Positions 5,901-56,226 of a stretch of 64,000 nucleotides of DNA are shown here, piece by piece (position 1 is the stretch's first letter; each line of letters begins with the position of its first letter). The stretch is from Aggregatilineales bacterium. GTDB taxonomy: Bacteria; Chloroflexota; Anaerolineae; Aggregatilineales; Ch27. A model generated the notes under the pieces. The model was not told the DNA's origin. It did not search any database and was given only the letters and a program-made list of their open reading frames with translations. The translations under genes and the position numbers were made by a program. Where the stretch lies: contig JARKNX010000133.1 in assembly GCA_029976025.1 (NCBI GenBank), positions 85,683 to 149,682 of the forward strand, given 5' to 3'.

Positions 5901-7260
5901 GCGCCTGATACAGGCGCTTAAGGATGAGGATAGCCAGGTCCGGCTGGCTGCGGTGGATGTGCTGCAAACCTTCAACACCGAGGACGCGCTCAGGGGCCTG
6001 TTCATGGCGCTCGGCAACGATGAATATCTGGTGTGCGACGCGGCGTCGGACGCTTTCGCCCGGATTGGCCGGCGGACCGTCCCTTATCTGATCAGGGCGT
6101 TGTCCAGCCCGCAGGTCAACATGCGGGCGGGGGCTGTGGAAGCGCTGGGCAAGATTGCCGATCCGGCGGCTATGGCGGACCTGACCCGGCTCCTTTCCGA
6201 TACAGAGCGGCCCTGGCTGTTTGATCTGTGCGTGGGCGATCTGGCGGCTAAAGCTCTGGAATCGATCGGCACGCGCGAGGCGCTCCAGATCGTGCTGCAA
6301 TGGCGGGCGGAAAACGCCCCCGACCCCCGGACGCAGGCTCTCAGTCAGGCGCCGGTCCTGTCCGAAGATTTGGCCGCCCCGGCGGAGAGCGCCGCCGAAG
6401 ATGATGCGCCATCTGCGCCGGAAGCCGGGGCGTCAGCCCCCGCAACGGCGACCGTGCTCCCCGGCGAGCTGACCCCGCCGCGCGGCATGCCGGAAGACCC
6501 GGGCAACCGGCAGATTGTCCTCGAAGTGCTGGATAACCTGCGCCACCCGGAATGGGAGGTCCGGCAGGCGGCGGCCAGGACGCTGCGCGAATATGCCAAG
6601 GCCCTCAAGGGGGCGGATGACCCGACTATTCTGGGGCGCTTGCAGGACGCTCTGGAAGACCCCTCCTGGGAAGTGCGCTGGGCCGTGGTGGAGGCGCTGG
6701 CCTGGATCGCCAACCCGGTCACCGTCCCGGCTATCGCCAGACGTCTGGAGGATAAGAACTGGATTGTGCGCGTCGCCGCGATCCGGGCGCTGACGGAGAT
6801 CCGGGATATCAGCGCCGCCCCGGCGGTGATCGGGGCGCTGAAAGATCGCAAGGGGCTGGTGCGGGAGGCCGCTGCTGAAGCTCTGGGCGAGCTGGGTGTT
6901 CCGGCGGCGGTGAATCCGCTGATCGAGCTGCTGCAAGATTCTGAGACGCTGGTCCGCCTGGCGGCCATTTACGCCCTGGGCAGGCTGCGGGCGCGGGCGG
7001 CGGTGCGGCAGGTGATGACCGCCCTGCGCGATGAGGACGCCAACATCCGGCTGGCGGCGGCGGTCGCGCTCGGCAAGATCGGGGATCCTCTGGCGATCAG
7101 CCGGCTGATTGAAGCCCTGGAGGATACGGGCAGCCCGTCGTGGGAGGAACAGCGGGTGTGTGACGCCGCCGCCGGGGCGCTGGAAGATATTGGCACACCA
7201 GAGGCGCTGGACGCCGCAACGCAGTGGAGGTCCGCGCAGGCGCCAGGGGTAGCAAACTGA
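2911..7260 (+). CDS. TIR-NACHT-HEAT repeat protein (NLR-like STAND NTPase, 1449 aa)
   Basis: GTG start with a GGAG SD. N-terminal TIR: SFVSYSDRDAAFALRLAVDL...FLAVISPAYLESGYCRAELDRAL, with the conserved Glu codon at 3139-3141. NACHT-type P-loop: Walker A GDGGSGKTT (3598-3624) and Walker B AALYLDGLSE (3820-3846). The C-terminal ~800 aa hold three arrays of PBS-lyase/EZ-type HEAT repeats, for example IRRGAARALGQFGDPAAVPVLVEALQDADPAVVIEAAGALGWIRD. Acidic Ala/Pro/Glu-rich linkers separate the arrays. Confidence 0.9.
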   Translation: MSQDRKSFVSYSDRDAAFALRLAVDLAQRGVPLWMDRLNLLPGEDFRAAAAAALDAPLAFLAVISPAYLESGYCRAELDRALSLGVPICVALLQPVPEADLPVPLAEGAYGDFRAWPDDGEGYWQGVNTLVDLFYREAGVPVAPEAGSEARYLLGVIRDLGARLAIPQIEDAGDQRPDPDGAFNWLAQGCFGVFDPRDMSPALPQFRPHIARYEGLQSVAEQYPRFVLIGDGGSGKTTLLSGLALQAARARLAWPASAPLPLILPLAAWSGDVALPSFIRQAAEAAGWPSDSDPLAALSQGEAALYLDGLSETEDAVEKAERLREWLQSDAAPQRLIVTCDREAYLRGLVLGLPAVQIIPWDAARAEAYLAAAVNADFAPEPGDALPAGRAPIHPSAGLRDLLRHPLLLNVLARAGQPAGGPEGSAGMLLRRLTEHRWAEAEGRATVSWTTLEAGLAELAFQATLDAMPVYLPEDYAVRYLGDAALLDPANSGAFLEMAGGAVRFVHQAVRDYFAARYIVQAGALCDYLALPQFDPGEQRIPGQWDAAVILLSGLAPDPEAIVYEVARVDPFLAFECAYSGLDLSRDSLDRLAHHLLSSSFVHRQIGRVAAVRLIPADLAESAMPTLLETMRNGAWDARWAAADTLFEMNPPLLPGVLEALADLDSPLNTAAGAALRKIGQAALPTLLMLMYADDAAIRRGAARALGQFGDPAAVPVLVEALQDADPAVVIEAAGALGWIRDSAATLWLPRLLHHDHPDIRQAAIRALGWMRAAAVDSMLDAAVNAPDLETRTQVIEALKDTSDRAVQDRLLHATTSDDGEIRAAALEALENAEGPVFVKRLIDALEDTAYSRWRGKSIGSIAAEVLKARGYDAAALAAEGEEDAPTAPAAEEAEHIPPRFETEAPAGRNSASTARSRLKRITAQDAALAAAPAASLEEVQEGTPAPLPTEVAPLDTPPRPASRQFELADDLTSLDWSRRSDAVLALQGQEPEIAIPRLIQALKDEDSQVRLAAVDVLQTFNTEDALRGLFMALGNDEYLVCDAASDAFARIGRRTVPYLIRALSSPQVNMRAGAVEALGKIADPAAMADLTRLLSDTERPWLFDLCVGDLAAKALESIGTREALQIVLQWRAENAPDPRTQALSQAPVLSEDLAAPAESAAEDDAPSAPEAGASAPATATVLPGELTPPRGMPEDPGNRQIVLEVLDNLRHPEWEVRQAAARTLREYAKALKGADDPTILGRLQDALEDPSWEVRWAVVEALAWIANPVTVPAIARRLEDKNWIVRVAAIRALTEIRDISAAPAVIGALKDRKGLVREAAAEALGELGVPAAVNPLIELLQDSETLVRLAAIYALGRLRARAAVRQVMTALRDEDANIRLAAAVALGKIGDPLAISRLIEALEDTGSPSWEEQRVCDAAAGALEDIGTPEALDAATQWRSAQAPGVAN

Positions 7261-7652
7261 TGCGGGTGTTTTCCTGAGGGTGAAGCAGGCGCGCCGGGAA
7301 GCTGCCGCCCGCCGGTGAAAAACAAATTAATACCTTTTTAACACCGGCAGGTGGCGGGGTATGTTATTTTAAAAGCGGAGCACTTCAACAAAGGCTGACT
7401 GCTACGGGCCATCCGTTTTCCTCTCACCTATTCCAGAGGGGGCTGTGAGTAAGGTGAAGGTGCTTCGCTATTATCTCCGAAGCGGAAAGTAGATCGGCAG
7501 GACTCCGCGCCGGGGATACCGCCTCAAGCGGGTATAGACGCTTCATTTCTTTTCATGATCTCAATTGGGGGGGTTACCCGCACAGTCGGTTCCGCGAGGC
7601 AGGGTGACGCCTAAAATCCTTTGCGCGGATAGTGCACCTTCAGGAATATGCC

Positions 7653-9209
7653 ATGCGACTATTTGTCAGCTATGCCCGTGTAGACAAACCCTACTGTATT
7701 CAGATTGTGGATACGCTGGAAGCGCACGATTCGTGGTTCGATCAGCGTCTGTATGCCGGCCAGAACTGGTGGCAGGAAATCCTCCGCCGGCTGGACTGGT
7801 GCGAGGGATTCATCTATCTGCTGTCGCCTGACTCCGTAGCCTCAGAATACTGCCGCAAGGAGTTCGAGCTGGCGCAAAGCCTGGGGCGCCCTATCTTCCC
7901 CATCCTGATCCATAAGGACCTTAATCTGCCGCCGTCGCTTGCCGAAGTCCACTATGTGGATTTCAGCGAAGGCATCACGGTCGAAGCCGTCACCGGGCTG
8001 CTGAATGCGATCACGATCGCCGAGCGGCGACGCGGCGCCGGCAGCCCGCTGCCGGTCTCGGCCATCGATGCCGAGGATGTCAAGCCTCCGACGCCCGATT
8101 CCGGTCTGGTGATCAGCGCGGCGGCTGAGGCGATGGAGAAGGGCCAGTTCGACAAGGCGGTTTTCCTGCTCAAGCAAGCCAAGGCCAACAATTTTGTCTC
8201 CCAGTTCATCAGCATTGACGCCCTGCTGCAGGAGGCACTGGCCGGTCTGGAGCGGCAGTCGTACCTGCGCGAGGCGGAGCGCGAGTACCGGCAGATTGCT
8301 GATCTGGTCAAGTTCACCCGCACGCGCCGGCTGGGTTGCGAGGCCTTCAAAGCCTTTCGGCAGGCTTTCCCCGATTACGATCCGGACAACCTGTCGGTCT
8401 ACTGCAGCGAGACGACAAATTTTTCCATATCCGCCCCGCTTGAGCGGTTTGCCCCTAAAGAGCCGCCGGCCCCCCCCGTGCCTGCGTTCCGGCTCCCCCT
8501 GCTGGAGTGGTGTCCGGTGCCGGAAGGGAATGTCCTGATCGAGGGCAACGGCAAGACCTACCCGGAGCCTAAGCTGTTTCAGGTGCCGGCTTTTGAGATC
8601 AGCAAATATCCGATCACCAACGCCCAGTATCAGGCATTTCTGGATGATCCGGAGGGGTACGCCAACCCGGCGTGGTGGGAATTTTCGCCGCTGGCGATGG
8701 AAGTGCGGGCGGAAAACGGCGAGCCGAAAGCCCCCCATTTCACGGGGGACGAGCGTCCGCGCGAGATGATCAACTGGTTCGACAGCATGGCGTTTTGTGC
8801 CTGGCTGAGCGACAAACTGGGGGCCAGGGTGACCCTGCCGCTGGTCAACCAGTGGGTGCGGGCCGCCCGCGGCGATTCTAGCTGGGACTTTCCCTGGGGG
8901 GAGCGCTTCATCCGCGAACGGTGCAATACCAGCGAGAGCAAGCTCAAGATGACTTCGCTGGTCAATCGCTACCCCGATGGCGCCAGTCCCTTCGGGGTGG
9001 TGGACATGGCCGGCAATATCTGGGAGTGGTGCCTGAACCCCAAGAATGATCTCGAAGATCAGCCGGAGATCACCAGCAGTCAGGAGCGCGCGGTGCACGG
9101 CGGGTCGTTCATCGGCCCCTCTACCCGGGCCAAGATTTCCTTCCGCTATTATCTGAATCCCAGGCTGTATTACTCCTCTATCGGCTTCCGCGTTGTCAAA
9201 CTGCCATAG
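7653..9209 (+). CDS. TIR domain / helical linker / FGE-sulfatase-fold (SUMF1-like, FGS) domain protein
   Basis: ATG at 7653 (MRLFVSYARVD...). The ORF track offers an alternative in-frame start at 7632. TIR: FVSYARVDKPYCIQIVDTLE...FIYLLSPDSVASEYCRKEFELAQSLGRPIFPILI, with the Glu codon at 7860-7862. Middle region: TPR-like helices (AMEKGQFDKAVFLLKQAKANN). From about nt 8493 the protein has FGE-sulfatase motifs: FEISKYPITNAQYQAFLDD, INWFDSMAFCAWLS, FGVVDMAGNIWEWC, RAVHGGSF...SIGFRVVK. Confidence 0.85.
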   Translation: MRLFVSYARVDKPYCIQIVDTLEAHDSWFDQRLYAGQNWWQEILRRLDWCEGFIYLLSPDSVASEYCRKEFELAQSLGRPIFPILIHKDLNLPPSLAEVHYVDFSEGITVEAVTGLLNAITIAERRRGAGSPLPVSAIDAEDVKPPTPDSGLVISAAAEAMEKGQFDKAVFLLKQAKANNFVSQFISIDALLQEALAGLERQSYLREAEREYRQIADLVKFTRTRRLGCEAFKAFRQAFPDYDPDNLSVYCSETTNFSISAPLERFAPKEPPAPPVPAFRLPLLEWCPVPEGNVLIEGNGKTYPEPKLFQVPAFEISKYPITNAQYQAFLDDPEGYANPAWWEFSPLAMEVRAENGEPKAPHFTGDERPREMINWFDSMAFCAWLSDKLGARVTLPLVNQWVRAARGDSSWDFPWGERFIRERCNTSESKLKMTSLVNRYPDGASPFGVVDMAGNIWEWCLNPKNDLEDQPEITSSQERAVHGGSFIGPSTRAKISFRYYLNPRLYYSSIGFRVVKLP

Positions 9210-45715: not shown

Positions 45716-46297
45716 ATGTTACCCGCCATGTCAATGATGAAGTGGGAAGAGGTCTGGAGAAGCCTGGACTGGGACCGGGATAGCTACCACAATGTGGAAG
45801 AGACCCTGGATCAGCGGGCCGATAAATACGCCAGGCCGCCCGAACAGGACAGCCAGAACGATCAGGATACGCTCAAGGCTCTGGTGTTTGAGCGCGGCCA
45901 GGAGCGGTACGCCATCCCGGCGCAGCATGTCCTGCGGGGTGTGGCGGAGCCGCGGATCACACCCCTGCCCTGCGTGCCGGACTACTATCGCGGCGTGATC
46001 AACGTGCGCGGGCGCATCATCTCGGTGCTGGACCTGCGGCGCTTCTGGCGTATCCCCGTCCGCGGAGAAGTGGAGACGCCCCGCCTGATTGTCGTCCGGG
46101 CCGGGGCACACGAGCTGGCGATTCAGGCTGATGATGTGCTGGAACTGGCGCGTATCCCGCTGAGCGAGATTGTGCCGCCGGTCACCGCCGGCATCGGTCT
46201 GGAGCATGTCCAGGGGATCAGCTCCGATGGGCTGGTGGTGGTGGATGTGGAAAGTCTTTCTCGCGATCAGCGGTTGTTCATCCACGACGAGTTGTAA
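45716..46297 (+). CDS. cheW: CheW-like coupling protein
   Basis: [53 protein letters not shown] is a CheW domain signature. Confidence 0.85.
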
Positions 46298-46308
46298 CAG
46301 GTGATGCC

Positions 46309-47625
46309 GTGACCCAAGCAAGCATGTCTTCCGCCAAACCCCGATCGACGACGCCCGGCCGGTCCTTGCGCGCTCGCCTCCGGAGCCGGGAGGAATATCT
46401 GATCGGCCTGCTGTGCGTTATCCCGGTTGTCCTCTGCGTCCTGTGGTGCGCGCTGGCCCTGAACACTTTGCGGACCACCTGGATTCAGGGTGGCGTGATG
46501 CCCTCAGCGGCGATTCAGGGGCTGGATACGCTGGGCGGGCAGATCATAATCGCCGGCGTGATCGTCGGCGCGCTGACCTATCTCGCAACGACTGCGATCA
46601 TCCTCCGTAACCGCCGCCGCGAACAGGCGCGCGAAGAGGAGCGCTTGCAGAAGATGCTGACCTTCGTTTACGCGATGGACGGGGGCGACCTGACCGCCCG
46701 CCTGCTGGCCGGGGGCGGCGATGATGCCAATTATCGCAAGATGGCGGAGGCGCTCAATGTCATGACCGACGGCGTCCACCGCATGACGACGGAAGTCAAG
46801 CTGGCCACGCAGGGCCTGGCCGCCGCCGCTGAGGAAATTCGCTCCGCCACCAGCCGCCAGATCGACGCCGCGACGCAGCAGGACGCCGTCGTTGCCCAGA
46901 CCACGGCCACCGTCAACGAGGTGCGCGCCACTGTGACTGAGACCGCCGAGCGCGCCCAGAATGTCGCCGAGAACGCCCAGACCTCAATCGAGGTCTCTCG
47001 CTCTGGCGAACAGGCCGTCTCCGACGCCATTGAAGGCATGCATCTGATCCGGCGCAAGGTGGAAGATATCGCCGACAATATCCTGATCCTCTCTGAGCAC
47101 ACCCAGCAGATCGGCGAGATTATCGCCACCGTCAACAGCATCGCCGACCAGTCTAAGATGCTGGCTCTGAACGCCAGCGTCGAGGCCGCCCGCGCCGGTG
47201 AGGAGGGTAAGGGCTTCGCCGTGGTCGCTATGGAAGTTCGCAGCCTGGCCGAGCAAAGTCGCGAGGCGACCGCTCAGGTGCGCGATATCCTGCACGAGAT
47301 TCAGCGGGCGACAAACGCCGCCGTCATGGTTACCGAAGAGGGGACGAAAGGCGTTGATCGAGGGGTGAGCCTGGTTGACCGGGCTGGCCGGACGATTAAG
47401 GAGCTGGCCAGCACGATTGAGGAAAACGCTATCGCCGCGGTGCAGATTGCCGCCAGCACTCGTCAGCAGGCCGTCGGCATGGACCAGCTCACCAATGCCA
47501 TGCGGACGATTAAAGAGGCCACCGCTGAGGCTGCCAGCAGCACGATGCAGGTGGAACGTAACATCCAGAAGCTGCAGGGCGTGGCGGAGCATCTGGGGGC
47601 CACCCTCAACCGCTACCGCCTGTAG
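46309..47625 (+). CDS. Methyl-accepting chemotaxis protein with minimal (~25 aa) outer loop
   Basis: Two TM helices ([21 protein letters not shown] and [21 protein letters not shown]). HAMP-like segment. MA domain: [43 protein letters not shown] at 46309; alternative ATG at 46324. Confidence 0.9.
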
Positions 47626-47686
47626 AGCGTCCGGACCTGACACTGCCGCCCGTATTGCACCTGCCAGCCGGGGTAGTAGAATTGCC

Positions 47687-50020
47687 GTGACCACACCACC
47701 CGACGAACTGCTCGATATCTTCTGGGTTGAGGCTTCCGAATATCTGGAAGCGCTCAACCGCATCCTGCTCGCGCTGGAGGTGGCCGGGCCGGATGACAAC
47801 ATGACCGACACGCTGCGGGAGGTCTCGCGCATTGCCCACAGCCTGAAGGGCGCGGCGCGGGCTGTCGGCCAGTCGATCATTGAGCGGCTGGCCCACCGGA
47901 TGGAAGACGTGTTCGATCTGACGCTGGGCGGGACACTCAAGCTCAGCCCGGCCGTCTGCGATGCCCTGTACGACTCGCTCGATGTCATCCAGATGATCGC
48001 CGGCGGGGTCGAGCCTGACCCGGACACGGTCGAAGCCGTGCTCGGCCAGTTGAACGGCCTGGCCGGCCCGCGCGAGGCGGAGTCCGCCTCCCCCGGCCAG
48101 GCGGTCGCCATCCGGCCCGCCGCGCCGCCGGCCCCGGCATACGAGCCGGGCGAAGCCCTCGAGCCGGTCCGCCCGGCGGGCGTAACCCCGGCGGCCCCGC
48201 CGGCGGCGGTGACCGCGCCCCGCGTGGCTGAGGACACCGTCCGCGTCAGCCTGAGCAAGCTCGACCAGTTAATGGGGCAGGCCAGCGAGCTGCTGATCGC
48301 CCGTATGCACAGCGATCAGCGCCGCCAGGACCTGCAGGCCCTGATGCAGGAATACCGCCGCTGGCAGCGCCTGTGGCGGCAGGTCCGTTCCGCTTACATC
48401 CGCACGACCCGCCGTCTCAAGGACACGCGGGAGATTTCTGGCCTGGGCGAAGGCGGCGCTGACCTGATCAGCCTGCTGGATTTTCTGGACGCCACCCAGC
48501 ACTATATGTCCCAGGCCAACCGCGAATTTGTCGAGCTTAACCGTTTGCTGGCGCAGGACAACCTGCACCTGACGACGCTGGTGGATGAGCTGCAGGCGGA
48601 TATCGCCAGCGTGCGTATGCTGCCCTTCGAGACGATTCTGGGCGGCTTCCAGCGGATGGTGCGCGATCTGGCCCGCGAGACCGGCAAGGATGTGGCGCTT
48701 GTCGTGGAAGGGGCCGATGTCGAGCTGGACAAGCATGTGCTGGAAATGCTTAAAGACCCGCTCATGCATATCCTGCGCAACTCGGTTGACCACGGCATCG
48801 AGCCGCCGGATCGGCGCGTAGCCGCCGGCAAGATCGCCACCGGCACAATCACGCTCAGCGTGGCCTCTCGCGGCAACGATATTCACGTCTCGGTGGCTGA
48901 CGACGGCGACGGCATCAACGCGGAGCTTGTTCGCCGGCGCGCCGTCAAGGTCGGCCTGATCGGCGAGCTTGATGTGGATACGCTCTCCAACGACGAAATC
49001 ACGTCCCTGATCTTTGAGCCGGGCTTTTCCACCACCGACCAGATCACCGCTGTCTCTGGCCGGGGGGTCGGGCTGGATGTGGTGCGTCAGCGGGTGGAGG
49101 CGCTGCGCGGGCGGCTGTGGGTGGATAATCGGCCCGGCTTGGGCGCCGCCTTCCACCTGATTGTCCCGGTCTCCCTGACCCGCATCCGCTGCCTGCTGGC
49201 GCGGGTGGGGCAGGAGCGGTACGCCATCCCGCTGACGACGGTCACCCGCATCATCAACATTCAGGGCGGCGAGGTCTTCAATGTGGAGGACCGCCCGATG
49301 ATCCGGCTGGATAACCGCCCGATGCCGCTGGTTTACCTGGGAGAAGTGCTGGAACGGCCCTTCCCCGCTCCGGCGCTGACGGCCAATACGCCGATCCTGA
49401 TCCTGCATTCGACCGAGCAGCGGCATGTGGCCTTCGTCATTGACGAGCTGTTGAGCGAGCAGGAGCTGGTGCTCAAGAAGCTAGGGGATGAGCTGGACCG
49501 GGTGCGCAATGTTGCCGGGTCGGCCATCCTGGGCACGGGCGATGTGATCATCGTGCTGCATACCAGCGATCTGATCAAGAGCGCCCGCCGGGCGCGCGGC
49601 GTGATCGCGGAGGCGCCGCAGTTGCCTGTCGAGGATGAGACCCCGCTCAACCGTTCGCGATGGATTCTGGTCGTGGACGATTCGCTGACCACGCGCACCC
49701 TGGAGAAGAACATCCTGGAGGCGGCGGGCTACCGCGTCCGCACGGCAACCGACGGCGACGAAGCGCTGCGGACGCTGCTGGACCAGCCCTTCGATGTCAT
49801 CGTGGCCGATGTGGAAATGCCGCATATGAACGGCTTCGAGCTGGCCCAGCGGGTCAAGGGCGATGCTCGCTGGAAGGACACGCCGTTCGTCCTGGTAACT
49901 TCGCTGGATTCCCCCAGCGATCGCGAACGCGGCCTGCGGGCCGGCGCGGATGCCTACCTGGTCAAGACCCGCTTCGACCAGGATGAACTTTTGCAGGTAG
50001 TTGAGCAGATGATAACGTAG
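47687..50020 (+). CDS. cheA: CheA histidine kinase fused to a C-terminal receiver domain
   Basis: Start set to the first in-frame start codon after the mcp stop (GTG at 47687). The ORF-track start at 47375 overlaps mcp. Hpt: SRIAHSLKGAARAVG. HATPase: HILRNSVDHGIE, DDGDGIN, GRGVGLDVV. CheW-like domain: [18 protein letters not shown]: ILVVDDS...FDVIVADVEMPHMNG. Confidence 0.9.
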   Translation: MTTPPDELLDIFWVEASEYLEALNRILLALEVAGPDDNMTDTLREVSRIAHSLKGAARAVGQSIIERLAHRMEDVFDLTLGGTLKLSPAVCDALYDSLDVIQMIAGGVEPDPDTVEAVLGQLNGLAGPREAESASPGQAVAIRPAAPPAPAYEPGEALEPVRPAGVTPAAPPAAVTAPRVAEDTVRVSLSKLDQLMGQASELLIARMHSDQRRQDLQALMQEYRRWQRLWRQVRSAYIRTTRRLKDTREISGLGEGGADLISLLDFLDATQHYMSQANREFVELNRLLAQDNLHLTTLVDELQADIASVRMLPFETILGGFQRMVRDLARETGKDVALVVEGADVELDKHVLEMLKDPLMHILRNSVDHGIEPPDRRVAAGKIATGTITLSVASRGNDIHVSVADDGDGINAELVRRRAVKVGLIGELDVDTLSNDEITSLIFEPGFSTTDQITAVSGRGVGLDVVRQRVEALRGRLWVDNRPGLGAAFHLIVPVSLTRIRCLLARVGQERYAIPLTTVTRIINIQGGEVFNVEDRPMIRLDNRPMPLVYLGEVLERPFPAPALTANTPILILHSTEQRHVAFVIDELLSEQELVLKKLGDELDRVRNVAGSAILGTGDVIIVLHTSDLIKSARRARGVIAEAPQLPVEDETPLNRSRWILVVDDSLTTRTLEKNILEAAGYRVRTATDGDEALRTLLDQPFDVIVADVEMPHMNGFELAQRVKGDARWKDTPFVLVTSLDSPSDRERGLRAGADAYLVKTRFDQDELLQVVEQMIT

Positions 50021-50025
50021 GCCCT

Positions 50026-51099
50026 ATGGCGAAAAAGATTCATGTTCTGCTGGTTGAAGATAGCCTGACCATTCGCCGCTTTCTGGCCGATCTGATTAAC
50101 GAGACGCCGGACATGACGGTGGTGGGGGAGGCGCGCGACGGGCAGGAGGCGATCACCCTGGCGGCCCGGCTGCAGCCGGATATCATCAGTATGGATATCC
50201 AGATGCCGCGCCTCAACGGGCTGGCGGCGACGCAGATCCTGATGCAGGAGAACCCGCTGCCTATCGTCATCGTCAGTGGCCGCTTGCAGCGCCACCAGCA
50301 CGAAGAAGTGGATCTGGCCTTCATGGCTTTGCAGGCCGGGGCGCTGGCCGTGCTGGAGACGCCGCCGCACCGCAGCCACCCGCTTTTTGCCGAGAGTCGC
50401 GACCATTTTCTGGCGACTCTGCGGGCGATGGCCGGGGTGGGGGTCGTGCGCCGCTGGAGCACCAGGCCGACTCCGCCCACCACGCTGGAGACGATCCCCC
50501 CGGCTCACGATTCCGAGCCGCTGGTGATCACGATCGGGGCCAGCGCCGGGGGGCCGATTGCCCTGCACCGTATTCTGGGCGCGCTCCCCAGGGGCTTTCC
50601 GCTGCCGGTGGCTATCGTGCAGCACATGGCTGACGGCTTTATCGAAGGGATGATCCGCTGGCTGGCGGGCGGGACTCCCCTGCACGTGATGCAGGCCGAG
50701 CCGGGGCAGTTCATCGAGCCGGGGCAGGTGGTCGTGGCCGGCAGTCACGCCCATTTGTTGCTGCAGCGGGTGGGGCGGCGGGTGCGGGTGGTGCTCGATC
50801 CGGAGCGCGGCGGCAGCCCTTACCTGCCTTCGGTGGATCGGTTGTTTCAGTCAACGGCGGAGCAGTTCGGCCCGCAGGCGATGGGGGTGCTCCTGACCGG
50901 GATGGGCGACGACGGCGCGCGCGGCCTGCGACAGATGCGCGATCGCGGCGCGCGCACGCTGGTGCAGGACCAGAATTCATGCCTGGTGTACGGGATGCCG
51001 GGTTCAGCGGTGGAGTTGGGCGCGGCTGAACAGATCGTGCCGCTCAAGCATATCGCAGCCACCATCCTGGATCTGGCTAAGGCTGTCCCCGGGGGCTGA
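50026..51099 (+). CDS. cheB: CheB protein-glutamate methylesterase (REC + esterase)
   Basis: REC: IHVLLVEDSLTIRRFL...PDIISMDIQMPRLNG. Esterase: VITIGASAGGPIAL, AIVQHM, GMGDDGARG. Confidence 0.9.
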   Translation: MAKKIHVLLVEDSLTIRRFLADLINETPDMTVVGEARDGQEAITLAARLQPDIISMDIQMPRLNGLAATQILMQENPLPIVIVSGRLQRHQHEEVDLAFMALQAGALAVLETPPHRSHPLFAESRDHFLATLRAMAGVGVVRRWSTRPTPPTTLETIPPAHDSEPLVITIGASAGGPIALHRILGALPRGFPLPVAIVQHMADGFIEGMIRWLAGGTPLHVMQAEPGQFIEPGQVVVAGSHAHLLLQRVGRRVRVVLDPERGGSPYLPSVDRLFQSTAEQFGPQAMGVLLTGMGDDGARGLRQMRDRGARTLVQDQNSCLVYGMPGSAVELGAAEQIVPLKHIAATILDLAKAVPGG

Positions 51100-51164
51100 G
51101 GCCTCACCCCCGGTCCCTCCCATCTACGTGGAGAGGGGAGTTTTGCTTCCTTCCTCTGCTAGCG

Positions 51165-51187
51165 GGGGAAGGGCCGGGGATGGAGGT
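51165..51187. repeat. G-rich 23-nt motif, copy 2
   Basis: GGGGAAGGGCCGGGGATGGAGGT. See copy 1 at 41103-41125. It lies 65 nt after the cheB stop, preceded by CCCTCCCATCTACGTGGAGAGGGGA. Confidence 0.5.
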
Positions 51188-51379
51188 GTGAGGATGGGAG
51201 GCTGGTGAAATTATGAACCACTCCACCCTGAGACGTGATACACTGTTCACAAACCGGGTGGTTGCAGATGTTGTCCGGCAGTATGAAGAATTTGCCGCAG
51301 CAACAGGCAGAAAGCGCATTGGTTCGAGCTTTCGAACCACTCTCTAACCGCAAAACGACCTGGGTAAGGAGTACAAAAC

Positions 51380-51754
51380 ATGGCGCTTGAAGTATTATTG
51401 GTAGAAGACAGCCGCACGCAGGCGGCCCAGATTAAAGAAACGTTGGAAAGCGTGGGGTTGAAGGTGCGTATCGCTTATGATGGGCCAGAGGGCCTCCGCG
51501 AGGCGCTGGAGAACCCCCCCGCACTGGTCGTGCTGGATGTCAAGTTGCCCAGTATGGATGGGTTTCAGGTCTGCCGTCGGCTCAAGCGCAACCCGGCCAC
51601 CCAGGATATCCCCGTGATCATCCTGACCGAGAAGGCCAGCGCCCAGGCAACGATGTCCGGGCTTCATGCCGGCGCGGATGACTACATCCCCAAGGACATC
51701 TTTGCCTCGGAACACCTGATCAATACCCTGCATGAGCTGGGTGTGCTGGAGTAA
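51380..51754 (+). CDS. cheY: CheY-like single-domain response regulator
   Basis: VLLVEDSRTQ...PALVVLDVKLPSMDGFQV...PVIILTEK...DDYIPK. The canonical acceptor Asp and Lys are present. Confidence 0.85.
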   Translation: MALEVLLVEDSRTQAAQIKETLESVGLKVRIAYDGPEGLREALENPPALVVLDVKLPSMDGFQVCRRLKRNPATQDIPVIILTEKASAQATMSGLHAGADDYIPKDIFASEHLINTLHELGVLE

Positions 51755-51794
51755 TGTGCATCCGGGCGTATCGCATCCGTAAGGAAAGCTGCAC

Positions 51795-52238
51795 ATGACT
51801 AAGGGGAAGGACGAGTTCACAGTTATCCCGCCGGTGCTGACCGTCACCGTGGAAGACAGCATGGATATCATGATTGCTCGTGACACGGCGCGCCGGGCGG
51901 CAGGTCTGATGGGCTTCTCTCCAGCCTTCCGCGCCCAGCTTGCCGGCGCTGCCGGGGCGCTAGCTGAACTCGTGCTCAAGACGGGCAACCCGCACGAGCT
52001 GGATTACAACGGTGTCCGGCAAAGCAACCGGGTCGGCATTCAGGTCACCTGCGAGGCGCTCTGGCTGGCTGAGGTGTCGCCGGCCAATGTGGAGATGGCC
52101 CTGCGCGCCAAAATGGGCGATCTGGTCGATGACATTGCCTTGCGGGAGGGGGACCCTCCGCTGATCACTCTGACCATGTGGCTGACGCCGGCCCGCGAAA
52201 TGCAGGCTTCTGATACGTCCGACTTCAACCCGGCCTGA
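51795..52238 (+). CDS. Hypothetical protein, weakly RsbW/HATPase-like
   Basis: 147 aa. IARDTARRAAGLMGFSPAFRAQLAGAAGALAELVLKTG resembles the N-terminal helices of anti-sigma Ser kinases (RsbW/SpoIIAB type). I see no clear G-boxes. Confidence 0.4.
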   Translation: MTKGKDEFTVIPPVLTVTVEDSMDIMIARDTARRAAGLMGFSPAFRAQLAGAAGALAELVLKTGNPHELDYNGVRQSNRVGIQVTCEALWLAEVSPANVEMALRAKMGDLVDDIALREGDPPLITLTMWLTPAREMQASDTSDFNPA

Positions 52239-52255
52239 CCGGAGCGCTGTTACCT

Positions 52256-52720
52256 ATGACCGCGGAGGAACCTGTCTTTGCCGTGATATGTGTGGTGGGG
52301 GACCAGCCCTACGCTATCCCGGTCGCCAGCATCCTGGAAGTGGCCGCACTGGTGCGCCTGACGCCGCTGCCAGACGCGCCCGCCCCGGTCGTCGGGGTGG
52401 TCAACCGGCACGGCGAACTGATCCCCATTCTGGACCTGCGGCTGTGCCTGGGCGAAGCGGCAGGAGAACTGGACCTTTCCACCCTGTTTATCGTTGTACA
52501 GGAAGAAAATCGCAAGGCCGGCCTTATCGTCGATGACGTGCGAGAAGTGCAGGCACTCCCGGCCCGGGCGCTGCAACTGGCGACCCGGAGCGGGCCGTAT
52601 ATTCGCGGGATGGCGGCGCTGAAAGATCAGCCCGTGCTGGTGCTGGATACGATGGCGCTGCTGCGGGCATTCGCCCCACCAGACACACTGGCAGTCCTTC
52701 CTGGCGGGAACCAGGAGTGA
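52256..52720 (+). CDS. cheW: CheW-like coupling protein (second copy)
   Basis: FAVICVVGDQPYAIPVASILEVAALVRLTPLPDAPAPVVGVVNRHGELIPILDL. Confidence 0.8.
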   Translation: MTAEEPVFAVICVVGDQPYAIPVASILEVAALVRLTPLPDAPAPVVGVVNRHGELIPILDLRLCLGEAAGELDLSTLFIVVQEENRKAGLIVDDVREVQALPARALQLATRSGPYIRGMAALKDQPVLVLDTMALLRAFAPPDTLAVLPGGNQE

Positions 52721-52723
52721 GGC

Positions 52724-53674
52724 ATGACCGACCGAGAGCAAAGACGCCACGACCGCGTTCTGATTGTGGCCAAGGATGAAGACCTGCGGGAAGCTCTGGC
52801 CGATACGCTGGACAGCGCCGGCGGCTACATGACCAGCCAGGCCGGCAGCTTTGAAGAGGCCCTGAGCGAGCTGCTGCTGAGCGAGTTTTCTCTGGTAGTG
52901 ACGGAAACGGAGCTGCCCGATCTGAGCGGCATGGACCTGCTGGCTGTCATCGGCGGGCTGCGCCCCGGCGTGTCAGTCATGATGATCGATGACGATCTGT
53001 CGGCCAAGTCCGCGGTGGCTGCCTTCCGGCTGGGGGCGGTGGATTACCTGTACAAGCCGGTCAATCTGGAATTCATCCTGATGCAGATCGAGCGGGAGCT
53101 GGAGGCCAAGCGCGCCCAGCAGGCTCCCCCGCCGCCGGAGCCGCCCAAGCGCCTGACCAGTCGCGACCGCGAGCGCCGCCTGAACCCCGGCACCCGCGCC
53201 GCCGCCCTGGTCCTGGGCCGGCCGCAGTTCAAGCGTATCACGGTGGAGCTGAACCGGCTGCGGTCGCATGTCCGCGCTAATTTCGTCGGCCTGGTGGATG
53301 TGGATGGCAATATGGTTGGCGCGGCGGGCACGCTGGAAGAATACGACCTGATGCTGCTCACTAAAGCCCTGGCTATCGACCACGATGCCACCAAGTCCCT
53401 GGCGACCATCCTGGACGAGAACCGCTTCCATTCGACCTATTTTGAGGGCGAGCACAGCGGCGTCTACATCATCGAATTCGGGCGGCCTTATCTGGTGTCG
53501 CTGGCCGTGATCTGCCCGGTGGATGTCAAGCCCGGCATGGTCTGGCTGTACAGCAAGCGGACCGCCGCCGTGATAGATGAGATTCTCCAGACTGTCCAGA
53601 TTCCGCGCAGTATGCCGGCCGGCATGGCCGGTATGCCCGGCGGCGAAGAAGAGCCGGATCGAGGCGAGGGGTAA
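52724..53674 (+). CDS. Receiver-like (pseudo-receiver, Glu at acceptor position) / Roadblock-LC7-like fusion protein
   Basis: REC-like RVLIVAKDEDL...FSLVVTETELPDLSGMDL. By alignment, the acceptor position is Glu (codon 52904-52906). The C-terminal segment ANFVGLVDVDGNMVGAAG...GVYIIEFGRPYLVSLAVICP resembles Roadblock/LC7. Same architecture as 23885-25057. Confidence 0.7.
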   Translation: MTDREQRRHDRVLIVAKDEDLREALADTLDSAGGYMTSQAGSFEEALSELLLSEFSLVVTETELPDLSGMDLLAVIGGLRPGVSVMMIDDDLSAKSAVAAFRLGAVDYLYKPVNLEFILMQIERELEAKRAQQAPPPPEPPKRLTSRDRERRLNPGTRAAALVLGRPQFKRITVELNRLRSHVRANFVGLVDVDGNMVGAAGTLEEYDLMLLTKALAIDHDATKSLATILDENRFHSTYFEGEHSGVYIIEFGRPYLVSLAVICPVDVKPGMVWLYSKRTAAVIDEILQTVQIPRSMPAGMAGMPGGEEEPDRGEG

Positions 53675-53741
53675 TCGCCGGGTAACGCTGTTTTGAGGGC
53701 GCCGCCGGATTGTGGTCACACGCCGGCGGCGTTTTTGTGTG

Positions 53742-56123
53742 CTACCAGTGGCGGGCAGCGGCAATGGCCTGCGCGGCCTGCTGGACCGCCCCCTCGCCGC
53801 CGAGGTCGCGTATCACCGGCGCCAGCACAACCAGATCGTTGAGCAGATGAGACAGAGGCCGCCGGCTGAGCAGCGCCAGCGCCTCGCACCACAGGGCGTA
53901 GGCCACCGCCGGCGGGTGCATCTTCCCCCACGGCCCGACGATCTGCTGCAGCGCGGCGGCGCGCTCCGCTGGCGCGTCCAACTGGCAGACGGCCAGCAGT
54001 GTATCCCGCAGGACCTTCGATTCCGACGGCAGCGCAGAAGGCGCTTCTTCAGAAGCCAGCAGCGGCGCAAAGACTGAGATGCCGGAAGCCCGGTCGTACT
54101 CATCCCCGATCTCGTGTACCGCATTCAGCGCGGCGCGGGTGATCTCCGGGCGCATCTCCGGGCTGGCCTGCGCCCAGAGGGCCGTCAGCGCCGTCGCCCG
54201 GTCGTAAGAATCGGTGATTTCGCGGGTCGATTCCAGCGCCCGCTGCAGGATGGCCGCCCGCAGGGTCGGGTTTTCCAGGTGCGGCAGCAGCGCGACCAGG
54301 ATGCTTGCGCGGTCGTAAGGATCGGCGGTGCCCTGGCCGAGTTCCAGTGCTGTCTCAAGCCGGGCGCCATACAGGTAGGGGGCCAGCGTGGTGAGCGAGC
54401 GCGCCTGGCGGTATTCAACCGGCACGTCGCGCAGATCGCTCAGAATCTCGTCCAGCGTGCGGTCGGTCGCTTCGCCTTGCGGCAGGTAGGGCACGAGGGC
54501 GATCAGGGCGCTGACCTTTTCCACCGGGTTGGTGATTGTGTGGGCGTCGGCCAGCGCGTCGGCCAGGAGCTGCTGCTGTTCGGCCAGCAGCGGGGCCAGT
54601 GTGGAAAGCGCCCGCACCTGGGCGCGATCCATCGTGATTGAGCGGGCGGTGGTCAGGGCGTTGCTCAAGGTGCGGTAGCGCAGCTCATCCGGCAGGTAGG
54701 GGACCAGCTCGGCCAGCGCCAGCACGCGCTCAAGCTGCCGCGGCAGGGCCACGGCCACGGCCAGCGCATCCAGCCAGGTGCGTTCGGCGGCCTTCCCCTC
54801 CAGCCGGCGGCCGAGCGCCTTGAGAGCCAGGAAGCGCGCGTCCCGCTGGCGGATGTTATGGGCGACAACCAGCGCCCCCATCGCCATGTCCGGAGCCAGC
54901 GAAGGGGCCAGATTCGCCAGCAGTTGGGCCCGGGTGTGTTCATTGGTGATTGTGTTGACCGCCGCCAGCGCCTCTCCCTGAAGGTTGCGCGGCAGGCGGG
55001 CCTGCAGGGCGACCAGGGCCTCCGCCCGCGAATCGCGACGGTTCATGGTGACGGCGATAGCCAGGGCGCGTTCCAGCAGGACGGGGAAGGCTTCATCCTG
55101 CTCGCCCATGCTGTCGAGATGAGGGGCGAAGGCCACCAGGGCTGTTGCCCGCTCGCTTTCATTGGGGATGACGGCGATAGCCTCCAGCGCGGCGGCCTGC
55201 AGGCGCTGCTGCAGCGGAGCGGGCAGGATCTGCGCCAGCGTGGTCAGCGCCCGGGCGCGCGGGGCCGGCTCCGGGATGTGAGCGGCCACGGTCAGGGCGC
55301 GGTGGTGCACCTCCTCGACCAGGTGTGGGGCGAGGGCGATCAATGCGCCGGCCTGGCCGTCAGAATGGCTCATGGTCGCGATTGTATCCAGGACAGCCAG
55401 CAGCAGGGCGATGCGCGCCGCCGACGGCAGATAGAACGCCAGCGCGGTCAGCCCGCGCAGGCGGGCCTCTGTATTGGGGATACTGCCGGCCAGGTCGAGC
55501 GCCTCAGCCGTAATGCCGGTGGGTAGATCGCTCTCTTTAATCGTGCCCAGCATGGGCAGCAGGTCCAGCAGGAGTCTGGCCCGCGCCGGGATGTCTGCTA
55601 CCTCCAGGGTTGACTGGTAGGCGCTGTGCAGGGTGCGGCGGCTTTGTTCCGAGGGCAGGTGCGGCGCCAGCATCAGCAGCGCCCGGGCGCGCGGAGCCGG
55701 CTCCGGCAGGACCAGAATTTCTTCCAGAAACTGGATGCGCTGTTTGATGGAGAGGGCGTCGCTGTACGCGGCCAGAGCCAGCACGCCGGATAACCCGGAC
55801 TGAACGGGATCGGGGGGCGGGGCGCCGTCTTCCTCCGTCTTGACCGGCTCGCGGCGCAGGCTGATCGCCAGGGCGTAAGCCACCTGGCGGCCCATCATGG
55901 CCGGGCCGTCATTGGTCGCCTGCTGCCAGCCGCGGTCGATCTCATCCAGAGTCAGGTACGGCCAGGCGCGGCGGGGGGCCAGGGTGGCGGCCGGTCGCGC
56001 CCCGGCCTGCGCGGCGGCGTCTGCTTCCGAAGCAGGCGCGGCGGCCTCCGGACTGTCGGCAGTCTGGCCGGTATCGTGCTCGTCCTCTGGTACGCCGTTC
56101 ATCGCTGTCAACGCGGGTTCCAC
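53742..56123 (-). CDS. Alpha-helical repeat protein (~17 copies of a 32-40-aa 'R-A-x-A-L-x-x-L-A-P-x-L-P' unit)
   Basis: Repeat cores include RARALLMLAPHLPSE, RLRGLTALAFYLPSA, AGALIALAPHLVEE, RARALTTLAQILPAP, RATALVAFAPHLDSM, RVLALAELVPYLPDE, VRALSTLAPLLAEQ, VSALIALVPYLPQG, ARSLTTLAPYLYGA and RASILVALLPHLENP. The N-terminus is acidic and low-complexity. GTG at 56123; alternative ATG at 56102. Confidence 0.8.
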   Translation of the reverse strand: MEPALTAMNGVPEDEHDTGQTADSPEAAAPASEADAAAQAGARPAATLAPRRAWPYLTLDEIDRGWQQATNDGPAMMGRQVAYALAISLRREPVKTEEDGAPPPDPVQSGLSGVLALAAYSDALSIKQRIQFLEEILVLPEPAPRARALLMLAPHLPSEQSRRTLHSAYQSTLEVADIPARARLLLDLLPMLGTIKESDLPTGITAEALDLAGSIPNTEARLRGLTALAFYLPSAARIALLLAVLDTIATMSHSDGQAGALIALAPHLVEEVHHRALTVAAHIPEPAPRARALTTLAQILPAPLQQRLQAAALEAIAVIPNESERATALVAFAPHLDSMGEQDEAFPVLLERALAIAVTMNRRDSRAEALVALQARLPRNLQGEALAAVNTITNEHTRAQLLANLAPSLAPDMAMGALVVAHNIRQRDARFLALKALGRRLEGKAAERTWLDALAVAVALPRQLERVLALAELVPYLPDELRYRTLSNALTTARSITMDRAQVRALSTLAPLLAEQQQLLADALADAHTITNPVEKVSALIALVPYLPQGEATDRTLDEILSDLRDVPVEYRQARSLTTLAPYLYGARLETALELGQGTADPYDRASILVALLPHLENPTLRAAILQRALESTREITDSYDRATALTALWAQASPEMRPEITRAALNAVHEIGDEYDRASGISVFAPLLASEEAPSALPSESKVLRDTLLAVCQLDAPAERAAALQQIVGPWGKMHPPAVAYALWCEALALLSRRPLSHLLNDLVVLAPVIRDLGGEGAVQQAAQAIAAARHW

Positions 56124-56226
56124 TCGCCGGGGCGTCGCAACCTGAGCGCGCTACAGTGCGCATAAAGCATTGTAACCCTATCTGGATCGATTCTTCAAGC
56201 GACGTCGAAGGCAGAATCTGGCGCGG

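Follow-up and report, generated by a model that had tools for sequence, protein, structure and literature searches.

What does a long array of helical repeats do when it is encoded as a protein of its own, beside a chemosensory operon? This question is raised by a gene in a 64-kb stretch of the genome of an Aggregatilineales bacterium (contig JARKNX010000133.1, positions 85,683 to 149,682 of the forward strand), which is the window analyzed here. The product, REP (the repeat protein of open reading frame (ORF) 53742..56123 on the minus strand), is very probably a solenoid binding scaffold, and its relatives include the C-terminal arms of signal transduction ATPases with numerous domains (STAND). 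A reading of the window made from the letters of the DNA, referred to below as the sequence-only reading, had described a 793-residue protein of tandem helical repeats encoded convergently with a Che operon. The translation is exactly of that length: the ORF is complete, starts with GTG, encodes 793 residues, and terminates with a stop codon at 53742-53744. An alternative ATG start at 56102 would give a protein of 786 residues, and the identical public protein P0001 begins at this position (Met8). The five repeat cores quoted in the sequence-only reading are all present in the translation (RARALLMLAPHLPSE at residue 145, RATALVAFAPHLDSM at residue 325, RVLALAELVPYLPDE at residue 466, VSALIALVPYLPQG at residue 537, and RASILVALLPHLENP at residue 605), as is the C terminus that it quoted.

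Profile autocorrelation on a 28-sequence family alignment was used to measure the repeat. The period is 36 residues, and the periodicity on which the sequence-only reading relied is significant, with a peak at lag 36 (z = 11.7 for residues 105-755, against 300 column shuffles). Secondary peaks at lags 68-72 and 104-108 are harmonics, and another at lag 32 corresponds to a minor variant. Leave-one-out unit hidden Markov models (HMMs) scored z values of 3.8-12.2 for 13 of the 17 units examined relative to composition-preserving shuffles; the four weak units start at residues 176, 362, and 429, plus the C-terminal cap at residue 756, which does not score as a canonical unit. Structure-guided segmentation divides REP into 18 alignable units, one N-terminal hairpin, and one cap hairpin for a total of 20 hairpins, and the count of 18 is close to the ~17 repeats of the sequence-only reading. 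The 18 two-helix units are 32-43 residues long with a mode of 36, extend from residue 102 to 750 (53874..55820, minus strand), and follow the consensus ARQIPDPYARARALAALAPHLPPEQRPALLREALAA. Each unit consists of a loop with the pattern I-x-D/N-x-x-x that leads into helix A (R-A-x-A-L-x-x-L-A-P-x-L), a short turn that often begins with proline, and helix B. The mean identity between units is 25% and no tandem repeat was found at the DNA level within the gene, so the array is ancient and has undergone no recent expansion. The unit HMM detected no further copies of the repeat elsewhere in the 64-kb window.

The array is bounded by two hairpins that differ from the repeat units. Residues 53-101 (55821..55967, minus strand) are predicted to fold into an N-terminal hairpin specific to the family, with helices at 59-71 and 74-89 and the consensus motif WPxL...WQxAxNxGP...RQVAYALA, and residues 751-793 (53745..53873, minus strand) form the C-terminal cap hairpin that ends in ...LLNDLVVLAPVIRDLGGEGAVQQAAQAIAAARHW. 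The hairpin is preceded by an acidic, non-conserved tail of 52 residues (55968..56123, minus strand). An acidic, disordered N terminus had been proposed from the sequence, and it is borne out by the composition of residues 1-55 (nine Asp + Glu versus three Lys + Arg) and by predicted local distance difference test (pLDDT) values below 50 across residues 4-52. REP has no transmembrane segment and no signal peptide (maximum 19-residue hydropathy of 1.94). In scans with Pfam and NCBIfam, none of the 28 family members, REP included, has an NTPase, effector, enzyme, or other known domain, in agreement with the earlier statement that REP has no NTPase or effector domain.

AlphaFold2 (AF2), run on REP with the 28-sequence alignment, returned a confident model (mean pLDDT of 88, predicted template modeling (TM) score (pTM) of 0.75, and 570 residues at pLDDT ≥90). 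The model is all-helical, with 40 helices arranged as 20 stacked hairpins from residue 59 to residue 792. The top 50 PDB matches retrieved with Foldseek are all α-solenoid proteins, HEAT proteins for the most part, and the closest likenesses are TBCD, karyopherins, CAND1, and the A subunit of PP2A (E ~1e-6). The prediction and the PDB matches support the solenoid that the sequence-only reading had envisaged, and the model identifies REP as a HEAT-like solenoid built from stacked antiparallel helix-pair units. REP shares with the canonical HEAT solenoids (PP2A A, karyopherin-β, CAND1, and TBCD) two-helix units of ~36-40 residues, superhelical stacking, a proline within or close to one of the helices, and the signature Asp...Arg-Ala-x-Ala-Leu where a helix starts. 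In contrast, no HEAT, ARM, or TPR profile matches REP at E ≤10, and the global TM-scores against these proteins are just 0.25-0.33, which indicates that the curvature of REP differs from that of canonical HEAT solenoids.

Conservation is unevenly distributed along the solenoid. Units 8-11 (residues 357-492; 54648..55055, minus strand) are the best-conserved part among 53 orthologues, with a mean top-residue frequency of 0.71-0.77 in 36-residue blocks of residues 361-468 compared to 0.4-0.5 at the ends of the protein. Both the A and B helices of these units are near-invariant (for example, LQGEALAAVN and TWLDALAVAV), whereas the sequence varies in the tail and in the units at either end. In HEAT solenoids, the concave face is lined by the B helices, and units 8-11 are the candidate partner-binding patch of REP.

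Alanine and leucine make up 34.5% of REP, the local GC content is 68-70%, and the opposite strand also holds long ORFs. These are the properties expected of a spurious long ORF in GC-rich DNA with an Ala/Leu-rich low complexity that imitates repeats. However, full-length orthologues with 31-63% identity and an undisrupted reading frame are found in the Anaerolineae genomes of more than 50 species, the AF2 model is confident, and the periodicity is not reproduced by shuffles that preserve composition. REP is a real protein, and its interpretation as a spurious ORF is effectively refuted.

The sequence of the repeat is not represented in the domain databases searched. Pfam returned nothing for REP at E ≤10, NCBIfam returned no match, and no Pfam repeat family (HEAT-type, TPR, ARM, or others) matched the 28 family members at E ≤0.01. 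A TIR-NACHT-HEAT protein encoded at 2911-7260 in the same window served as the positive control and scored E = 1.3e-92 with HEAT_2, and the alignment of the REP unit profile to the canonical HEAT units of this window using hhalign gave a probability of 1.6%. None of the HEAT profiles (PF02985, PF13646, PF03130, and PF13513) recognizes REP. The period of 36 residues is compatible with several other helical repeats (characteristic periods of 34 for TPR, 36-44 for Sel1, 35 for PPR, and 42 for ARM), but none of their Pfam models matches. All public copies of REP that bear a name are called 'hypothetical protein', and no published name for the repeat was found in the literature searched, which does not prove that the repeat is undescribed. 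Because the databases are silent while the canonical HEAT control scores ~1e-92, the REP repeat is classed as a distinct, unannotated sequence family with a predicted HEAT-like fold. The sequence-only reading had suspected a poorly described repeat class and had raised HEAT, ARM, and TPR as possible relations; the suspicion holds, and the repeat does not map to the profiles of these three families. The 'LAPxLP' family is defined by tandem 36-residue units of the form ARQIPDPYARARALAALAPHLPPEQRPALLREALAA followed by the cap '...LW.E.L..L..R....LL.DL..LAPvi..LGG..A......A...W(WP)', and REP fits this definition with 18 units and the cap.

Among solved structures, the family profile reaches only TON_1535 (PDB 3zpj), a hypothetical protein of helical repeats from Thermococcus onnurineus that shares with REP the rhythm 'I-x-D/N-P-x-x-[KR]-x-x-A-L-x-x-[IL]-A'. 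The E-value of 1.7e-5 is the sum of three weak stretches that each have an individual E ≥0.5, and homology between the two proteins is not established. Two other matches were discarded. A PADLOC 'DEDDh' match on REP (E = 2.5e-4) falls in an Ala/Leu-rich stretch and was set aside as compositional, and the sole phmmer match of REP in the PDB, the GCN4 coiled coil (E = 1.3), is an artefact.

An exhaustive HMMER search of 1.84 billion representative sequences (clusters at 50% identity) was used to collect the relatives of REP. At E ≤1e-3, the repeat family has no fewer than 2,652 clusters, of which 392 remain at E ≤1e-30. The relatives belong to two classes, full-length stand-alone proteins of ~725-830 residues and large proteins of 1,100-3,100 residues. 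Six of the large relatives were scanned with Pfam and have an N-terminal NB-ARC, NACHT, or AAA_16/NPHP3_N domain, sometimes accompanied by an APAF-1 helical domain or EAD2, and the repeat arrays of these six proteins have no significant match to TPR, HEAT, ARM, or any other Pfam family. TIR is present in one word-index match among the relatives. With a unit HMM built from the orthologues, the 105 large relatives, where the array is located at the C terminus, contain 4-28 units each with a median of 17, and 69 stand-alone proteins contain a median of 13. The large relatives close in 64 of 105 cases with the cap '...LW.E.L..LA.RtR..LL.DL..LAPvi..LGG..A...AI.dVgRWWP', and the '...LAPvi..LGG...RWWP' end of these STAND proteins is homologous to the REP cap hairpin. 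Searching with the unit HMM, as the sequence-only reading had proposed, assigns the repeat to two architectures, stand-alone arrays and C-terminal arrays of STAND ATPases. In cultured hosts, relatives are plasmid-borne in Nostoc PCC 7120, Calothrix, Tolypothrix, and Leptolyngbya, where they are annotated as 'NB-ARC domain-containing protein' or 'APAF-1 like' and have toxin-antitoxin, anti-restriction, and insertion sequence (IS) genes as neighbors; one relative of REP is found in Micromonospora. An association of the repeat and its tail with large NTPases of cyanobacteria and actinomycetes had been suggested in the sequence-only reading. This lead is verified because the large STAND relatives of filamentous cyanobacteria and Micromonospora, with their NB-ARC, NACHT, or AAA_16 domains, carry the same repeat and cap.

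The STAND arms (for example, Leptolyngbya boryana WP_172410518.1, 'NB-ARC domain-containing protein', and P0070, P0077, and P0082) share the 36-residue repeat with REP, have arrays of comparable length, and are up to 36-40% identical to REP over 200-490 residues with E-values down to 1e-81. Their hosts are filamentous cyanobacteria, actinomycetes, and Chloroflexota. By these alignments, REP is homologous along its whole array and cap to the sensor arm of NB-ARC/NACHT (STAND) ATPases, and the array is the presumed ligand-binding arm of many nucleotide-binding leucine-rich repeat receptor (NLR)-like ATPases of multicellular bacteria. STAND sensor arms bind a trigger protein by shape complementarity and are reusable on different signaling chassis (PMC13581612). 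REP differs from its STAND relatives in the absence of an NTPase, a winged helix, and an effector and in the presence of its own N-terminal hairpin and acidic tail. The STAND relatives lack this hairpin, and their matches to REP begin at about residue 132 or later. Thus, REP has the C-terminal repeat array of a STAND protein, with a presumed role in sensing, and lacks the P-loop nucleotide-binding oligomerization domain and winged helix. The fold class of REP is known and its sequence family is new; relative to the STAND sensor arm, a module already known, REP is a stand-alone variant.

Other proteins with the repeat have distinct surroundings or annotations. Locus L164 encodes a stand-alone 824-residue array with an RWWP tail (L164:251-2725) directly upstream of a separate NACHT/AAA_16 gene (L164:2843-4603), and the pair is a possible split STAND system. 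A 958-residue array (L165:1166-4042) is encoded beside an integrase. WP_010994081.1 (L082:3941-6973), encoded on plasmid gamma of Nostoc PCC 7120, has 24 units and is annotated as pentapeptide-repeat-containing; the pentapeptide part is presumably C-terminal.

The stand-alone orthologue group was defined by scanning GTDB species, each represented by a single genome, which yielded 73 loci. Nearly all are in genomes of Anaerolineae or other Chloroflexota, and the named lineages include Anaerolineales, Aggregatilineales, Phototrophicaceae, Ardenticatenia, and Thermoflexus. The phylogenetic tree separates two groups. The first group contains REP and other proteins of ~740-830 residues, with the closest clade 55-63% identical to REP and the others 31-40% identical. 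The second group consists of ~880-residue proteins with an N-terminal extension of ~140 residues that has no Pfam match (L052, L054-L057, L059, L060, L063, L064, L066-L069, L072, and L075); these genes never adjoin Che genes, and a secreted PA14+SH3 protein is encoded directly upstream in eight of the loci. The idea that the ~880-residue proteins are paralogues of REP was dropped, since no sampled genome has both forms, and the group is treated as a sister clade. REP orthologues are single-copy and stable in length and their tree matches the clades. On this evidence, the REP group is vertically inherited and syntenic in Anaerolineae and occupies a stable chromosomal neighborhood, in contrast to the variable or mobile contexts of the STAND relatives. 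The central peak of conservation, single-copy vertical inheritance, and an unchanging length together favor a conserved cellular partner for REP over a role in an arms race.

This pattern bears on the idea that REP acts in trans on STAND immunity, as a sensor, a decoy, or a regulator. It would then either bind a protein of an invader or modulate NLR-like ATPases from other loci, and the TIR-NACHT-HEAT protein (2911-7260) would be a possible target. The idea draws on the homology of the REP array and cap to STAND sensor arms and on the conflict-type contexts of other stand-alone arrays (beside NACHT/AAA_16 in L164 and beside an integrase in L165), and also on the cyanobacterial relatives carried on plasmids near toxin-antitoxin, anti-restriction, and IS elements and on the TIR-NACHT-HEAT and TIR-FGE-sulfatase genes within the window. 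However, no STAND NTPase gene adjoins REP in 52 orthologue loci, inspected over as much as 10 kb to either side, and a single-copy, vertically inherited, syntenic protein of stable length with a conserved center does not behave like a conflict system, which is typically variable. The NACHT protein of the window uses canonical HEAT units instead of the REP repeat and is encoded 46 kb away. A role of REP in STAND immunity is therefore judged to be quite improbable.

REP is convergent with an eight-gene Che operon (45716-53674, plus strand) located on its downstream side, as the sequence-only reading had noted, and the stop codon of REP is 67 bp away from that of the final gene in the operon. The operon encodes CheW (45716-46297), a methyl-accepting chemotaxis protein (MCP; 46309-47625), a CheA-CheW-receiver (REC) hybrid (about 47687-50020), CheB (50026-51099), CheY (51380-51754), a conserved 147-residue protein (51795-52238), a second CheW (52256-52720), and RECX (52724..53674), all on the plus strand. 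The two transmembrane helices of the MCP are connected by a loop of just ~27 residues, so the receptor is without a ligand-binding domain. Features such as the hybrid CheA-REC kinase make the operon resemble the Frz system. To our knowledge, motility control is essentially unstudied in Chloroflexota. Frz-like cores as well as homologues of MglA/MglB have been described in this phylum (PMC4546325, PMC4316618). CheR is encoded in no annotated copy of the operon, though CheB is present. Almost every copy of the operon retains the gene for the 147-residue protein between those for CheY and the second CheW; the protein has no Pfam or PDB-sequence match, and its N-terminal half resembles, by eye, anti-sigma-factor/GHKL-type regulators.

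RECX, the 316-residue product of the last gene in the operon, combines a receiver domain with an MglB-like domain. The Pfam Robl_LC7 match is sub-threshold (E = 0.0024), and the RECX family profile matches Myxococcus xanthus MglB at E = 1.5e-11. The AF2 model has the topology α-β-β-α-β-β-β-α (pLDDT 73.5) and aligns with MglB of Myxococcus and Thermus in Foldseek with TM-scores of 0.76-0.78 and 26-27% identity. The profile and the model identify RECX as a receiver fused to a predicted MglB-type Roadblock/LC7 domain. RECX is highly conserved, with at least 68% identity across the best 120 matches, and the adjoining CheY is 82-98% identical. No MglA gene was found in the window or in the loci that were searched with an MglA sequence as the query. 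A terminator-like hairpin with a T-run (53720-53732, plus strand) follows RECX 10 bp short of the REP stop codon at 53742 and may be a shared or bidirectional terminator of the two genes. On the opposite side of REP, a sigma-70-like promoter match, TTGAAG-18-TACAAT (56169..56198, minus strand), lies in the interval that separates the start of REP from the amidohydrolase gene upstream. This site is a match to the consensus only (shuffle mean of 0.2 per region), and it suggests that REP forms its own transcription unit.

The strength of the connection between REP and the Che operon was assessed from the neighbors of REP in 52 orthologue loci, with denominators that vary by neighbor. RECX, usually followed by CheW, the 147-residue gene, CheY, and CheB, is convergent and downstream of REP in 35 of 49 loci, at distances of 22-2,500 bp and down to 31-37% REP identity. 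From the Che side, REP is adjacent to RECX in 3/4 look-ups and in 11 of the 25 metagenome loci whose flanks are long enough, and no consistent gene replaces it downstream of RECX in the loci that lack REP. Thus, REP is encoded next to a chemosensory cluster in the window and in most orthologue loci, but in a convergent orientation and in 11 of 25 loci when viewed from the operon. The amidohydrolase and PfkB genes upstream of REP in the window are upstream of REP in none of the other loci. An NTP-transferase gene is located upstream in 29/50 loci, IstB/DnaC-like (18/36) and DnaD-like (17/36) genes are found further upstream, and the BFN (14/37) and KARI (12/37) genes are also syntenic. A co-directional gene for a ~145-residue GAF-like protein (sub-threshold GAF_2 match, E 0.01-0.05) lies between REP and RECX in 34/51 loci. 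This gene follows the repeat gene at 20-250 bp in 42 loci in all (for example, L003:10343-10780, plus strand), some of which have no Che genes. The 64-kb window does not contain it, and the clade of the window has lost it. L078 retains the GAF-like gene and is missing the repeat protein. These counts show that the region around REP is unusually syntenic.

Several of these observations weigh against a functional connection between REP and the operon. The syntenic region extends over ~20 kb across the class, and RECX is just modestly more conserved than the housekeeping neighbors. About half of the RECX operons have no adjoining REP, ~13 REP orthologue loci have no Che genes nearby, and in most other lineages the tightest neighbor of REP is the co-directional GAF-like gene. 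The Aggregatilineales isolate SYSU G02658 has a REP orthologue (L053) with no Che operon beside it. The Che link is positional only, and REP and RECX are not co-transcribed because the genes are convergent. A distance-matrix (mirror-tree) comparison of REP with RECX gave no specific co-evolution signal (partial r = 0.13), and the comparisons with CheW, the 147-residue protein, CheY, and CheB reflect shared phylogeny only. The housekeeping neighbors are conserved almost as often as RECX, so the coupling of REP to the Che genes is plausible but unproven. The association is only suggestive because the synteny is broad, the link seen from RECX is partial, and the mirror-tree signal is explained by shared phylogeny. 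That REP works with the Che/MglB-like module is put forward tentatively, with a likelihood somewhat short of even.

The same gene order would arise if REP were a housekeeping scaffold unrelated to chemosensing that sits beside the Che operon through ancestral gene order and has its partner elsewhere, for example the GAF-like protein or the products of the upstream sugar-nucleotide genes (NTP-transferase and phosphoglucomutase). The extended synteny (NTP-transferase, IstB-like, DnaD-like, BFN, and KARI), the GAF-like gene on the same strand beside REP even where Che genes are missing, the RECX operons without REP, the convergent orientation, and the missing co-evolution signal are all accommodated by this explanation. 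It accounts less well for the Che side being the most conserved neighbor of REP and for its persistence in the clade of the window, where the NTP-transferase, phosphoglucomutase, and GAF-like genes have been lost from the locus and the upstream neighbors vary between close relatives. There is also no GAF-like partner within the window. A housekeeping role apart from chemosensing is considered rather unlikely.

The proposed role of REP combines these lines of evidence. REP would be a cytoplasmic, non-enzymatic α-solenoid, a detached STAND-type sensor array in which the N-terminal hairpin and the acidic disordered tail stand where the STAND relatives have the ATPase and effector. It would act by binding one or more protein partners, most probably through central repeats 8-11. 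The likeliest partners would be the neighboring Che products, which include a receptor without a ligand-binding domain and, from the last gene, a fusion of a receiver with MglB, a GTPase-activating protein (GAP) of the Roadblock type. The complete proposal, a non-enzymatic solenoid scaffold whose likeliest partners are the products of the adjacent Frz-like operon, has about an even chance of being correct. On the output side, REP may be an adaptor that docks phosphorylated receiver proteins (RECX or CheY). On the input side, REP may feed a bound cytoplasmic ligand into an array whose receptor lacks a sensor of its own.

Two proteins of M. xanthus offer points of comparison. Cpc7, a HEAT protein of the Che7 cluster, binds CheY7 according to the part of PMC11514114 that cites Darnell et al. 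2014. The genes of Cpc7 and REP both lie at a non-flagellar Che cluster, both products are built of helical repeats, and Cpc7 provides a precedent for a CheY-like protein having a solenoid as its output target. The Cpc7 repeats are of the PBS-lyase HEAT type. REP belongs to a different repeat family and is convergent with its Che operon instead of being encoded within it, and binding of a CheY-type protein by REP is putative. SgmX is a large TPR solenoid and an effector of the MglA/MglB polarity module (PMC7519303, PMC7668184). The setting of REP is similar in that SgmX is a large α-solenoid that operates with an MglB-regulated switch downstream of Frz, and the operon beside REP ends in a REC-MglB fusion. 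SgmX and REP have no sequence relationship and there is no MglA gene near REP, making this comparison a pure analogy. The more specific scenario, in which a STAND-type sensor solenoid became detached from its ATPase and was domesticated as an input/output adaptor of a Frz-like chemosensory pathway, is distinctly unlikely. If true, a sensing module of immune receptors would have been re-used to control cell polarity or gliding in filamentous Anaerolineae.

A model of the 36-residue repeat would annotate thousands of regions that are now 'hypothetical' and permit analyses of sensor classes. REP indicates that a STAND-type sensor arm can persist as a conserved, vertically inherited stand-alone protein, and it would exemplify the domestication of a conflict-system module or, conversely, its cellular ancestor. 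The Frz-like operon with its terminal receiver-MglB fusion supplies concrete, testable partners for REP, and RECX, as a potential phospho-switchable GAP at the output of a chemosensory system, may merit separate study. The findings overturn no current understanding, and the function proposed for REP is inferred from comparisons of sequences and models.

Two further features were observed outside the REP-Che region. The DnaB helicase gene found upstream of the repeat gene in related genomes (L001:4206-6683 and L003:1-337) bears an intein (Pfam Intein_splicing). The window also contains a conflict-type gene cluster on the plus strand that encodes an AAA_16/ATPase_2 protein of 881 residues (117-2762), the TIR-NACHT-canonical HEAT protein of 1,449 residues (2911-7260) with repeats of the ordinary Pfam HEAT type, and the TIR-FGE-sulfatase protein of 525 residues (7632-9209). 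Such TIR/NACHT clusters are typical of conflict systems in multicellular bacteria.

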